Part shown: positions 1-56,319 of the stretch, one piece after another
How positions within the stretch are numbered: position 1 is the stretch's first letter
How the letters are laid out: every line of letters starts with the position of its first letter
Origin: Octopus vulgaris
Taxonomy: Eukaryota
Direction of reading: 5' to 3'
NCBI GenBank assembly: GCA_951406725.2
Contig: OX597830.1
Span: 49,786,001-49,850,000 of the forward strand
Length of the DNA stretch: 64,000 nucleotides
Notes under the pieces: model-generated
Told to the model about the DNA's origin: nothing
The model's database searches: none
What the model saw: the letters and a program-made list of their open reading frames with translations, nothing else
Made by a program: the position numbers and the translations under genes

Positions 1-150
1 TACAAGCTTTTTCATTCTCTCTCTGTTTATTTTCTCTTATTCCTTTCTGTTGAAGAGCGTGGGCTCGAAACGTAAACGACTTTTCCATTTTTCCCGAGCG
101 TCAAACTAATACACTTGCTTGTTGTTCATACACCTGTCTTCGTCTTTTTT
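1..150 (+). mobile_element. Penelope pLTR-like repeat fragment with a degenerate minimal hammerhead motif (truncated by the window edge)
   Basis: CTGTTGA (47-53), stem GAGC-GTGG-GCTC (55-66), GAAA-CGT-A (67-74). A homologous, more decayed copy is at 19120-19290. Both abut (TA)n. Confidence 0.55.
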
Positions 151-195
151 TCCAACAATATATATATATATATATATATATATATATATATATAT

Positions 196-308
196 ACGAC
201 GAGCTCCATTCAGCTTTTGTCAACCAAAATACATTCAAAAGGCTTCGGTCGCCCTAGGTCTATAGTATAAGGCACTTGCTAGCCCGAGGTACCTTGCAAT
301 AGGACTGG
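196..308 (-). mobile_element. SINE family A fragment (degenerate 5' half)
   Basis: Reverse complement aligns with the body of the full copy at 52471-52890. Confidence 0.7.
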
Positions 309-1090
309 TATTATTAAGAGTCTCTATTATAAGTGTATATATATATGATGTAGATAGCAGAATCAGCAAATAGAAAAAATTTAAGCAGGAATAGCGAGAA
401 TACCGTGTGATGGTGGCGAATCATTTGAGGATATTGAATCCTGCGTAGTATATTGATTTTCATATTAAATATTCATGACGGGTAGTGGATAGCTAGCGAT
501 ATCAAATGCCATGCTGTGGATATGTAGCTATATCAAATGTCATGGTGAGCGAAGTTAATTCTATTATATCAATACATCTTAGTACATTTATCGGCTGCTG
601 TGATTTATTGTAGACACATTCATGTGAACACCTGACAACGACACAGAGAGAACAGGCAAATGTCAACAGCTTAGCGGGCAGAAATTGATGATTGAAATAT
701 ATAGTGTTTACACAGTGTTTTGCCGATAAGTGCTTCGTCGGTACATGTTCTTACATATGCGCAAGCGCACAGACGCAATAGTCCAGACAGACATACACAC
801 ACCACGCGTACACGCGCGCATACGCATAAAAACGCAAACAGAAAAAACATACGCATAGAAGCCTCGTCAAAGACAAATACACAGAGGAGATGTTTTATAT
901 ATTATATTTAAATATAGAAAACAGCGAAATTACAACAATAGTTATGGTCGTATGTCTACATAGAGACAGAGATGCAGACAGTCATGTGGACAGACACACA
1001 AACAGACACACGGGCAAATAGATAGATACATAGATAGACAGATAGATAGATAGATAGATAGATAGATAGATAGATAGATAGATAGATAGA

Positions 1091-1260
1091 TATGTTTCTT
1101 TATTAGTCACACAGGGCTGCGCACACACGGGACAGATTACAAAGTAGAGCTTTTCTTTTGGGGGAGAAAAAAAAGCGGGGTAGGTTTTCGATCAAAAGGG
1201 ATCGTAAAAGGGAAAGAAAAAAAGAAAAAGAAACGATCAATAGGGATCGTGTATCACAGA
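1091..1260 (-). mobile_element. 3' UTR fragment of a Tx1/L1-like LINE inserted in (GATA)n
   Basis: Minus strand ends GCAGCCCTGTGTGACTAATAAAGAAA, similar to the LINE tail at 14888-14913. Confidence 0.55.
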
Positions 1261-1582
1261 GATAGATAGACAGTTATATATATATATATATATATATATA
1301 TAGAGAGAGAGAGAGAGAGAGAGAGAGATACATAGATAGACAGACAGACAGACAGATAGACAGACAGACAGACAGATAGATAGATAGATAGATAGATAGA
1401 TAGATAGATAGATAGATAGATAGATAGATAGATAGATAGATAGATAGATAGATAGATAGATAGATAGATAGATAGATAGATAGATAGATAGATAGATAGA
1501 TAGATAGATTTCAGTCAGGTGAGCATAGTAATCAAATTGAAAAAGAACTGGATCATACAAAGAGAGTCAGTATATTTTATGT

Positions 1583-1677
1583 TTATTGCTTTCTACGACA
1601 TGGTCCAAATGTTATAACTTTTACTGATGAAGCTGAAGTCGAAACATCTGGCCATATTGTATTCTGTAAAAGGACAT
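1583..1677 (+). ncRNA. Degenerate type III hammerhead-like motif
   Basis: CTGATGA at 1624-1630 and GAAA at 1641-1644. TGGTCCAAATGT pairs with ACATCTGGCCA as a long helix III. Stems I and II are imperfect. Confidence 0.4.
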
Positions 1678-1679
1678 GT

Positions 1680-52470: not shown

Positions 52471-52890
52471 GGCGCAGGAGTGGCTGTGGTAAGTAGCTTC
52501 TCTACCAACCACATGGTTCCGGGTTCAGTCCCACTGCGTGGCACCTTGGGAAAGTGTCTTCTACTATAGCCTCGGGCCGACCAAAGCCTTGTGAGTGGAT
52601 TTGGTAGACGGAAACTGAAAGAAGCCCGTCGTATATATGTATATATATATATATATATATATATATGCGTGTGTGTGTTTGTGTGTCTGTGTTTGTCCCC
52701 TAGCATTGCTTGACAACCGATGCTGGTGTGCTTATGTCCCCGTTACTTAGCGGTTCGGCAAAAGAGACCGATAGAATAAGTACTGGGCCTACAAAAAGAA
52801 TAAGTCCCGGGGTCGAGTTGCTCGATTAAAGGCGGTGCTCCAGCATGGCCGCAGTCAAATGACTGAAACAAGTAAAAGAGTAAAAGAGTA
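52471..52890 (+). mobile_element. Full-length young SINE family A
   Basis: tRNA-like head with B-box GGTTCAGTCCC, CORE-like ACCTTGGG.AAGT, internal (TA)n(TG)n and (AAAAGAGT)n tail. Confidence 0.94.
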
Positions 52891-54249
52891 TTACAAAAAG
52901 TGGTAGACAGGGAGAGTTGGTGGAGCGCCTAACGCCATGCCTTGTTATATTACTAGTTATTTCTAGCTTACATATCGCTGGGATCGATACAAGAAGTAAA
53001 ATCAGAGAACGTAATCAACTATAATCTCTCTCTCTCTCTCTCTCTCTCTCACTCACTCACTCACTCACTCACTCACTCACTCACTCACTCACTCACTCAC
53101 TCTCACACACACACACACACACACACACACTTATAGCGTTGTGTCCGACTTTCCCTGTCACCCAGTTTACCATTCCCACCTTGTTCATGGATGCTTTTGT
53201 TGCAGTTTGCCCGGTTCTTAACATTGGTGCCAGGTATAACGTCTGGTGACCGAAACAAAGACTACTATCTTCAAACTGGACATGTAGCCCGATATCTTGC
53301 AATAGAGTATACTGCCCTTAAGTCACCCATGGGCCTTGCGGGTGCGTTATATTGGGGGTCACCTTACAGAGTTAATACTATCAAATTTTTCTCACCCTCA
53401 CCTTGTAAAATGGATGACAAAATCGTTTGGGCGTCGAAGAAAATATCTTGCGGTATCTATTTGGGTTCTTTGCATTCTGTAATTTTACATCCCACCGTGA
53501 TGAACTTTTTCCTTTTATTGTTCCAGGTGAAATAATAAGAACCAACCAAGTACCAGTAAAATACCAGTCATGTACTCGTATTGATTTAGTCAGCGAATCT
53601 TTTTCCCCTCAAAAGTACCCGATTTAATTGCTGCTCCCCCAACGCTAATTCCTAGAACATCGACCTTGCTAGAAACTATTGTTATTGATGTCTGTTTAAG
53701 TTGCTCTTTTTATGGCTATGTAAATTCTGAGAATATTTGTTGCTTGTTTCAGAAATTTTTGTTTCACAATTTGTTGTTCGTCTTGTTTAGAAGTGGCCAT
53801 GAGTAGAGTGGTGTAATCATTCCCTTGTGTCAATTCGTCTCTGTCCGTTTAAAAAACAACTTTTTTTAATTTGAATCTTGAAAAATCTAAAATTGCAGAC
53901 AGCGCTGTTTGACAAATAAGAAAAAAGACAAGACACAGCAGATGAGGGAAAAGAAACTATTCGTTGTAGTCATGAAAGCTTCAGCAACAACAACACTTCT
54001 AAAGTCACCAATAGCAACAGCATAGCAGTTTCGACGAGGTCCAGTATAGAAGCCGGAATTGCATAAGTAAGAATAATTGCAAATGACACCAGCGATATTC
54101 TGACGTCGATGGTAGGCATTAACACCGCCACCACCATTGAGAGAAGCGGTATCAATATCATGAGCAACAGCTTCACCAAGAATCCTGAAAGATTTGACTC
54201 TTTTGTAAGAATAACAAAAGTATTTACCTCTTAGAAGAAAGACATAAAA

Positions 54250-54650
54250 GCGGCTTGGGACTCGTCCTGATAGAATACAGGAAGGCCGTATTAACCTCAA
54301 GTCGGTCCTTGGATCAGTGTTATAGAGGTGCACTGTGGTTTAAACGCCGACAGGTTGAGACGTTTATAAACGCCGTGTTACGGAAGTGGTTGAGAGACAT
54401 ATGGAGGGAAATGGAAAACGTTATTTGCAGCAGGAGATGCCGGGCAGTGATTATGCGATTCCCAATAGACATCCACACACAGAAGTAGTCTAAGAAGACA
54501 TTGGGGAATTCAGCCTTTTTTGGACATACATAGCACAGCAAGAGGCTAATATAAATGCGATGGATAGACACTAGAAACGAATGTCTGCGGATGATGGCAT
54601 ACTTTGTCCTACAAGAAAATACAACTCTGGTTAGGCAAAAGTTCAGATGG
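54250..54650 (+). pseudogene. Very decayed RTE-like LINE C-terminal relic
   Basis: RQVETFINAVLRKWLRDIW followed by AFFGH in another frame. Confidence 0.45.
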
Positions 54651-55694
54651 ATGATGAGCAGATGCGATATTTTATCTACGGTGACATATTTTCCCGCAGA
54701 ACGGCGATAATCTTTCTGGGAAGTTTACAGTGACCGAGAATTGCTGACTTGAAACTTTTATCGAAAAGTTGTCGTTGCGTGTATGATGGATCAACTCTCG
54801 GGCGAGTCTACTGTGATACTTTCTTTTAAGCGTGAAGGGAAGACAGTTGTGTTTTTTCTGGCAGGAGTAAAACTGCCTTCTCTTCTCAGCTGAAGGCTGT
54901 AACAAAAGTGGTTCTATGGTAGAGACAACTGAAAGAGCACTCGTCTCTAGAGGGCCAAAACCTCGTCGACCTTTTCAATTCCACTTAGAAAGAAAGATGA
55001 GGGTGTAGAAGGCAGTGCTTTCCAGTAAATTTGGCGATAGTTTGCTAGAAGATTTAATCCTGGAACGAGTGAAAGAGTCAGCTCTCAGAATGCACTGATA
55101 GGACGGAAATGATATCTGGGATATTTAGAGTTCACTGAATGATCCTCGGTGTGATTTCAGTTAAAACGTATGATAAGCTCAATATTTTTGAAATCCTTTA
55201 CATATTGCGAGTGGATTACTGGACTCGCAGAATAATTCATCTGTTGCAGTTTTTAAGAATAAAGTATTGGAGTGCTCTTCTTTGTTCACAGCCATATTCC
55301 TTCCAGCATTACAACCCTCGTTAATGTTACAATAACCGCTGATGCCGTTGTTGTAGTAGCCCAAGGTTAGCCAGCTCTTATCAAGTATAAGTATGATCAG
55401 TCGCAACAATCCCGTGCCTTTTGACCTTCATGACTACATTTTGAATTCATTTTTAAACTGTACGGATTGAGCTGAAAAGAGAATTTATTGTTATTTGTAA
55501 CAAATCAAAATAACCTGATGTGATCTACTCTAGCTCGTATACTGCAATTTACAAAGATGTTCAATAGCAACAACATGTAATATATTTACAGCTACGTGGA
55601 CTGGGCTAGCCAGGGAGTAGTGTATTGGCTATGCAGTTAATGTTATACCAATTCCTGGATATAAAACTTCGAATCTGTATTTTTGTACGGCCAA

Positions 55695-55905
55695 GGGCAG
55701 CGAGGTGGTAGAATCGTCAGCACGCCGCACAAAATGCTTTCGGCATTTCGTTCGTTTTTACGTTCAAATTTCGCCAAGGTCGTCTTTGCCTTTCATCCTT
55801 TCAAGATCAATAAAAAAAAGTACTAGTTGAGTGTTAAGGTTGATGTAACTGGCTACCCCCCAACTCAGAAATTCCTGGCCTTGTACCAAAATTAAAAACC
55901 AATAT
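55695..55905 (+). mobile_element. SINE family B
   Basis: Head and CTTTGCCTTTCATCCTTTC core. Confidence 0.82.
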
Positions 55906-56257
55906 TTTTGTCTGTCAACCAGCCACTAGCTGATTACATGCCATCTTCAGAATTAACAGACCAACGACCCCGAGACAGAATACCTCCGAACAAGAGCAGA
56001 GTATGTTGGTATCGACTTGGCTATTTCTTCTACATACAAACGCCGTCTCTGAGAATTTCATATCCACCGTTATTATTTTATCTTGCCTCACATTTCAAGA
56101 CTTGTTCATTAAAACCTTACATACTTTCTCGTTATTTTAGCTCTAGTAAGCCAATCCTTCTCCAAGGAGGTTTAATAAGTTTGAAACTCGTCGTTTATTA
56201 TCATTGCGACACCAAAATCAAACTCTCTTCCCACTGCATGCCCATTTTCTATTTTGT

Positions 56258-56319
56258 CTTAATTTTACTTAGTCTAAATATCAGAGTTGACTCGCCTGTC
56301 TCTCTTCATCAGAATTAAG
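56258..56319 (-). ncRNA. Possible degenerate type I hammerhead
   Basis: Minus strand CTTAATT-CTGATGA-AGAG.GAC..GTC..CTCT-GATA-TTTAGACTAAG-T-AA-AATTAAG. GAAA is replaced by GATA and there is one extra nucleotide at the cleavage site. Confidence 0.35.

Follow-up and report, generated by a model that had tools for sequence, protein, structure and literature searches.

What are the hammerhead ribozyme-like motifs that recur, often within foldbacks and beside (TA)n, in a 64,000-nucleotide stretch of the Octopus vulgaris genome (assembly GCA_951406725.2, contig OX597830.1, positions 49,786,001 to 49,850,000 of the forward strand; hereafter the window)? A sequence-only reading had listed nine such motifs and proposed that unrelated small non-coding elements converged on one design, a hammerhead core at the tip of a long rod, possibly with rod-like circular RNA intermediates mobilised by Penelope enzymes. 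We conclude with good confidence that the sites are decayed copies of several hammerhead-bearing families, one of which (family C) is the 3′ end of a coding Hydra-clade Penelope-like element (PLE), and the others of which are likely short non-coding relatives copied by PLE enzymes.

Hammerhead motifs and repeat families in the window

All nine motifs were found at the coordinates given in the sequence-only reading. Homology searches were performed against the genome of the same species (2.8 Gb, 227 contigs), and seven of the nine sites fell into six repeat families: two sites, at 47.5 and 48.2 kb, into A, and one each into B (at 49.0 kb), C (at 49.7 kb), D (at 5.7 kb), E (at 47 bp), and G (at 21.2 kb). 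Family sizes were taken as the first-look candidates of these searches, which were 211, 155, 1458, 1550, 2253, and 1029, respectively. The top 16–46 loci of each family, that is, the best-scoring copies with 1.5 kb of flank per side, were sampled (16 loci for E; 46, part of them overlapping, for G).

The majority sequences of A–E and G restored the core, helices I–III, and the UH site of a type I hammerhead. The core was canonical (CUGANGA/GAAA/UH) in B, C, D, and G, whose majority sequences also had a palindromic helix III of 7–8 nt. The majority sequence of A had a U4C core and a 14-nt helix II, and that of E had a fixed A6U core and a minimal helix III. The core, GAAA, and UH site were intact in 7/20, 7/15, 18/20, 14/20, 11/16, and 9/15 of the motif-covering copies of A, B, C, D, E, and G, respectively. 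Because the family majority sequences restore complete motifs, we accept the motifs as hammerheads. Thus, the motifs in the window are real at the family level, as had been claimed, and are mostly decayed copies. A complete family core was present in the window copies only at 5660 (D, with a 42-nt helix II and a 7-bp helix I), 47498 (A, with U4C), and 47 (E, with A6U). The cores at 49673 (C3A), 48253, and 21221 (deletion) were mutated, and the foldback at 49002–49137 had no complete motif in either half. For the site at 1624–1644, the own-genome search gave a single relative (77%) with the layout of a minimal hammerhead; for 56258–56319 it gave no relative, and this motif is unconfirmed. The reported association with (TA)n was also recovered: (TA)6+ occurred within 300 nt of 6/9 sites versus 29% of background positions (p ~0.025).

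Taken by itself, the window, with 35% GC and approximately 21% simple repeats, would fit chance matches in AT-rich, palindrome-rich DNA. A strict descriptor, which excluded short helix III loops and thereby missed all nine sites, gave 0–1 matches in the window, not above shuffles, and a PLE-type descriptor gave 1–3 matches versus shuffle means of 0.06–2.5; between 6 and 42 of 100 shuffles reached the observed number. The density of hammerhead matches within the window is not above chance, and the comparison with shuffled controls that the sequence-only reading had proposed turned out against it. Over the window, Rfam gave no gathering-level match, and none of its hammerhead families was reported at the sites of A, B, C, and D. 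The best 150 of its 457 E-value matches were nearly all microsatellite-driven microRNA models, and the output of the repeat finder was likewise dominated by microsatellites. Pfam revealed no reverse transcriptase (RT) and no GIY-YIG domain in 12 window open reading frames (ORFs), and three PLE proteins used as queries against the translated window found no match. A representative-protein search returned 9983 relatives, none of which was named. Against chance stand the complete family majority sequences, the significant covariation of the C-type motifs described below, and a descriptor search over 515 kb of loci chosen for PLE content, which gave 39 matches versus 0–1 in 10 shuffles. The family alignments refute chance for A–E and G, and it is extremely improbable as the explanation of the motifs, although it may hold for 56258–56319.

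Coding parent of family C

Family C was followed upstream through at least 2.3 kb of AT-rich sequence with internal repeats of approximately 875 nt, and RT-region coding pieces were joined to the C body at loci L201 and L195. First-look candidates in the genome numbered 6136 for GIY-YIG and 4873 for Hydra-type RT, many with intact ORFs; the latter were found with one C-linked RT-region piece as the query, and 20 regions were fetched. At locus L240, an inverted C end was followed by broken frames of RT and GIY-YIG and then by C sequence over 2.7 kb, with the C hammerhead at its end. The RT and GIY-YIG fragments of L240 matched an intact 981-aa ORF at 64% and 53% over residues 87–513 and 840–981, respectively. 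The window copy of C showed 89–94% identity to the 3′ region of L240, and C showed 69–77% identity to the ends of other coding Hydra families.

The intact 981-aa relative was present in L245 and L246, and long ORFs were also found in L247 and L249. The 981-aa ORF contained RWK at residue 64, DKT at residue 151, and CxCx5C at residue 842, the motifs that define Hydra PLEs (PMC8557442). The Pfam GIY-YIG match of the C-terminal fragment was weak (E 0.01), and the whole ORF had no Pfam match. In L245, a hammerhead with a 60-nt helix II stood on both sides of the ORF, accompanied by an inverted copy, and the same arrangement was observed in L246, L247, and L249. The sequence past the 3′ hammerhead of L240 resembled the leader ahead of the ORF in L251 and L245. 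Both L240 and L245 showed a sense hammerhead near the 3′ end, a pseudo-long terminal repeat, an inverted 5′ copy, and a (TA)n target. As judged from these sequence features, family C is the 3′ terminus of a coding Hydra-clade PLE, with the clade assigned by motifs. The parent encodes RT and GIY-YIG, which bears out the link to PLEs made in the sequence-only reading.

A C-like hammerhead 1.2 kb behind GIY-YIG in L148 was considered as the end of that element and rejected, being a separate insertion in a (TA)n run. Positions 13343–13552 of the window matched (83%) an insertion inside the 3′ region of L240, which is another dispersed repeat.

Units of families A, B, D, E, and G

Sequence found 3′ of the hammerhead in part of the A and D copies stood 5′ of it in other copies; the unit lengths were 343 nt for A and approximately 533 nt for D. 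More-than-unit copies were observed in both families: 6/20 copies of A exceeded 400 nt, as judged against the 343-nt unit, and 2/20 copies of D exceeded 533 nt. Each of A and D is a closed unit without coding capacity that carries a type I hammerhead in a retrozyme-like layout; the copies seen were dispersed, truncated or 1.1–1.4 units long, and often inverted. The 3′ ends of D clustered at +163 to +171 (10/20) and +272 to +295 (5/20), and its 5′ ends ranged from −107 to −393, a pattern expected from the polarity of target-primed reverse transcription. The 3′ ends of A were limited by the search seed to about +164.

Outside the window, a D-related element (70–85%) with an inverted arm, at L149:6526–8300, recurred approximately three times at 594-nt spacing. 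Two other non-coding hammerhead families (L151, at 5984 and 6479, and L236, on the minus strand with 560-nt spacing) formed direct dimers with two intact cores, and are better retrozyme candidates than the window families.

Copies of G and E had a common 5′ start approximately 60–75 nt before the core, adjoining unrelated DNA. In the coding PLE of L159, a TATA-like box and a start-like site were noted by eye at a comparable distance from the hammerhead, and E and G may thus correspond to the stretch of a terminal repeat that is transcribed. No permuted head-to-tail junction was seen in the B, E, and G loci examined, and we leave these three families as unassigned PLE-type ends. The palindromic helix III of 7–8 nt in B, C, D, and G and, in B and C, the U.U at the helix II base are Hydra-type signatures that point to common descent. 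A covariance model of the C-type motifs scored D at E 2.2 and G at E 4.7, which is no evidence of homology.

Since C proved to be a coding terminus after it had been followed 2.7 kb upstream, all families, including A, B, D, E, and G, might be truncated termini of coding PLEs whose long copies lie outside the sampled loci. The sampling, which covered the top 16–46 loci per family, speaks for this explanation. However, the units of A and D are closed, since going 5′ from the hammerhead leads back into the 3′ part of the same unit, and the common 5′ start of G and E bounds these units as well. We therefore consider this alternative quite unlikely. The earlier proposal of small non-coding elements is supported for A and D and not for C, and the possibility that every locus is the terminus of a coding PLE holds for C and is unlikely for the closed A and D and the bounded E and G.

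Several observations weigh against the reading of A, B, D, E, and G as short non-coding relatives copied by PLE enzymes. The sample was biased toward the best-scoring copies. No coding parent was found for any of the five families in the loci examined, and in a translated search, loci with PLE-protein matches were rare (A, 2/20; B, 1/20; D, 2/20; E, 0/16; G, 1/46). Of three such matches inspected, those in L064 and L011 look like separate neighbouring insertions, and the one in L010, a Hydra-like RT piece directly after an A copy, is ambiguous and a hint only. In 20 loci each of A and D with their flanks, we noticed no direct tandem that carried two intact hammerheads. In three RNA-seq runs, one D copy had sparse reads, 106–193 per run, on both strands with none over the core, which speaks weakly against abundant circles; the reads were mostly less than 95% alike, and the library was perhaps poly(A)-selected and may miss circles. 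The fixed A6U of E and U4C of A may impair cleavage. Because no coding parent was found, the mobilisation of A, B, D, E, and G by PLE enzymes is inferred, and we regard these families as likely, not certain, short non-coding relatives copied in this way.

Origin of the foldbacks

Loci with an inverted partner numbered 9/20 in A, 13/20 in B, 6/20 in C, 7/20 in D, 5/15 in G, and 0/16 in E, and no fixed junction was shared among the copies. In the window, the arms at B, at G, and at 47428–47477 of A are inverted duplications. Because the junctions vary among copies, the rods are read as inversions made by insertion: they are mostly head-to-head 5′ inversions from PLE insertion. An extended helix I with the core at its end was found in A (48205–48330, z −3.9), the sole family with such a layout. 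The placement of the core at the tip of a long rod thus applies to A, and not to the arms named above.

Convergence of unrelated non-coding elements on a viroid-like, rod-shaped circular RNA with a terminal hammerhead, as the sequence-only reading had it, has some evidence on its side. The monomer majority sequences of A, D, G, and B were more structured than shuffles (z −5.0, −8.4, −4.7, and −2.3, respectively), A has the extended helix I, and A and D are closed. However, the predicted monomer folds of A, B, D, and G were branched, with 6–10 hairpins, and that of E (z 0.3) was unstructured. The varying junctions do not fit an RNA rod, and the other foldbacks of the window were without a complete hammerhead. 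Moreover, C belongs to a coding element, its resemblance to other Hydra ends and the Hydra-type signatures of B, C, D, and G speak against unrelated origins, and the convergence claim is not sustained. We regard this explanation as very unlikely.

Two of these other foldbacks, at 10202–10471 (91% palindromic) and 61992–62580 (83%, with several nested inverted pieces), are repeats with relatives elsewhere and without a hammerhead core. At 14029–16881, two young SINE-like copies of 385 nt, inverted and 98% identical, surrounded a 271-aa ORF with a CCHC zinc knuckle (15703–16518, minus strand), without a hammerhead; these are probably separate insertions around a LINE ORF1 fragment.

Long helix II

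In the majority sequences, the helix II region was 68, 58, 42, and 52 nt in B, C, D, and G, respectively, which agrees with the earlier remark that stem II is longer than in textbook minimal hammerheads. Covariation, the second part of the proposed family-consensus test after the restoration of cores in A–E and G, was counted for one set, ten C-type motifs from different subfamilies chosen as cluster representatives. Of 24 pairs, 13 had changed on both sides, and 6 of these 13 were among the 10 pairs of basal helix II; the structure was drawn from the same ten sequences, which favours it. None of 500 shuffles reached 13 pairs, slid controls gave 2–4 pairs, and RNAalifold, unaided, recovered the same helices I and II in the C-type alignment. 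The comparative sequence evidence indicates that, in C-type motifs, the long helix II is under selection as an RNA structure; its role would probably be that of a tertiary contact or a protein-binding handle.

A descriptor search over 282 loci gave 26 motif clusters with a helix II of 10–72 nt, of which 13 had at least 39 nt, although single-locus clusters may include chance matches. By the same measure, helix II was approximately 12–26 nt in the 26 Hydra rows of File S2 of PMC8557442. The long helix II has a precedent, because one plant endonuclease-less PLE in the same source reaches approximately 54 nt. What is new here is a recurrent long helix II of 42–68 nt, covarying in the C-type motifs, together with amplified variant-core families. 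Our literature search gave no description of these families, and long helix II variants may be covered in work outside it. The main text of a 2026 octopus repeat annotation (PMC13282606), in the version available to us, does not contain "hammerhead" or "ribozyme".

Coordinates and neighbouring features

The copies at the nine sites and further features of the families are listed in Table 1.

Table 1. Hammerhead-bearing copies and related features of the window (window coordinates)
Feature	Position	Strand	Description
Family E copy	1..151	+	Unit ~190 nt, start ~30 nt before the window; minimal hammerhead 47–74, A6U; (TA)n at 159; 95% to family majority
Minimal-hammerhead remnant F	1624..1651	+	Old; helix II minus 3 nt; one relative
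Family D copy	5580..5890	+	5′-truncated part of closed ~533-nt non-coding unit; intact hammerhead 5653–5726; ends at (TA)n
Family E decayed relative, absent from the sequence-only list	19146..19284	+	72%
Foldback, 3′ end of another GIY-YIG-coding PLE family, absent from the sequence-only list	20657..20875	.	Truncated at GAAA of its hammerhead
Family G copy	20944..21289	−	Bounded ~340-nt non-coding unit, 52-nt helix II; core deletion; 3′ end adjoins (TA)n 20876–20943
G inverted partial arm	21344..21396	+	Intact CUGAUGA at 21381; without GAAA half
Family A copy 1	47428..47670	+	Inverted arm 47428–47477 and sense part 47481–47670; core 47498, U4C
Family A copy 2	48057..48506	+	More than one 343-nt unit (48057–48154 recurs at 48407–48506); mutated core 48253 at tip of extended helix I
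Family B head-to-head pair	48843..49168	.	49049–48843 minus and 49060–49168 plus; both halves truncated within hammerhead; family helix II 68 nt
Family C copy	49292..49788	+	5′-truncated, assigned by sequence to 3′ end of coding Hydra-clade PLE; hammerhead 49664–49756, 58-nt helix II, C3A; (TA)n at 49793
Hammerhead-like motif, unconfirmed	56258..56319	−	GATA replaces GAAA; single copy

Two further features of the window were noted. Broken non-LTR retrotransposon fragments without a Pfam match lay at 30924–31970, which by their motifs resemble the restriction-endonuclease (R4/Dong) type, and a 68-bp tandem repeat (4.2 copies, 91% matches) lay at 44282–44570. Outside the window, a young PLE family with many intact ORFs of 771–781 aa (L146, L147, L160, and L165) carried DKG and CxxPxCxxC motifs and was Neptune-like. 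Its terminal repeat had tandem CCAAT/CRE-like boxes, a TATA-like box, and a splice-donor-like site, and its U3-A8 hammerhead lay approximately 65 nt from the 3′ end.

Discussion

The elements behave like PLE termini and animal retrozymes, and are not a new class of mobile element. Like Hydra-clade PLEs, including Hydra-1_Obim (Craig et al. 2021, PMC8557442), the parent of C combines RWK, DKT, and CxCx5C motifs with a C-terminal GIY-YIG, a (TA)n target, and an inverted 5′-truncated copy, and carries a sense type I hammerhead near the 3′ end whose helix III is palindromic and whose helix II often has U.U at its base. The same source describes inverted 5′-truncated copies, tails, and targeting of (TA)n as features of PLEs. 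In contrast to the Hydra PLEs listed there, helix II and its loop span 58–60 nt instead of approximately 12–26 nt, and the 3′ region of the C parent exceeds 2.5 kb with its ~875-nt repeats, whereas whole elements are generally shorter than 3 kb. The Hydra-1_oBim motif listed in that source differs from every family here.

The metazoan PLE hammerheads described by Cervera and de la Pena (2014, PMC4209133) share with ours an extra base after A9, the palindromic helix III, and opposite-strand pairs; in schistosome PLEs, such dual hammerheads lie 100–700 bp apart. The U3-A8 variant (here in coding PLEs), many heterogeneous families per genome, and mostly solitary truncated copies are also shared. 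Unlike the 6–8 bp reported there, helix II here reaches 68 nt. Both U4C and a U.U at the helix II base have been reported as natural variants (PMC3088659), and we found no mention of families with fixed U4C (A) or A6U (E) in the parts of PMC4209133 available to us.

A and D resemble animal non-LTR retrozymes (Cervera and de la Pena 2020, PMC7229834; Li, Clavereau and Pollet 2026, 10.64898/2026.07.22.740005) in being non-coding, AT-rich, closed units of 340–530 nt with a type I hammerhead. Derivation of retrozymes from PLEs and mobilisation by them have been proposed in these two reports. Unlike retrozymes, A and D were seen in the sampled loci as dispersed copies, truncated or slightly longer than one unit and often inverted, instead of tandem arrays, and are known here from genomic DNA. 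Ribozyme activity should not be assumed, because just one of nine predicted retrozymes cleaved in 10.64898/2026.07.22.740005.

In the families examined, the 3′ ends cluster in or near (TA)n, the 5′ ends vary, and copies cross the cleavage site. A mechanism consistent with this pattern would start with a nick in (TA)n by the GIY-YIG endonuclease of an element, after which RT would copy the RNA from approximately 35–280 nt downstream of the hammerhead site. Synthesis would mostly stop early, and often a second copy would be placed head to head, giving a DNA foldback. The hammerhead is predicted to cut multimeric transcripts as a dimer formed via the palindromic helix III, and the template would likely be a religated circle or an uncleaved multimer, because copies cross the cleavage site and exceed one unit. 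A circular or multimeric template has also been proposed in PMC4209133 and PMC7229834, and the role of the hammerhead in PLEs is described as still open in PMC8557442. A more far-reaching version, which we put forward as a speculation that is on balance unlikely, is that several Penelope-derived hammerhead families independently gained a helix II of 40–70 nt, which escapes Rfam and standard descriptors and serves for docking or regulation, letting small circular retrozymes (A and D) and transcription-start-to-end mini-elements (E and G) recruit Hydra or Neptune RTs, some of them with catalytically weakened cores.

These findings suggest that Rfam and short-loop descriptors undercount hammerheads in genomes of this kind. 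The octopus genome pairs intact, apparently young coding families with short non-coding units, and its natural ribozyme variants (long covarying helix II, U4C, A6U, and U3-A8) provide a handy set for testing the need for cleavage, dimers, and circles in retrotransposition.

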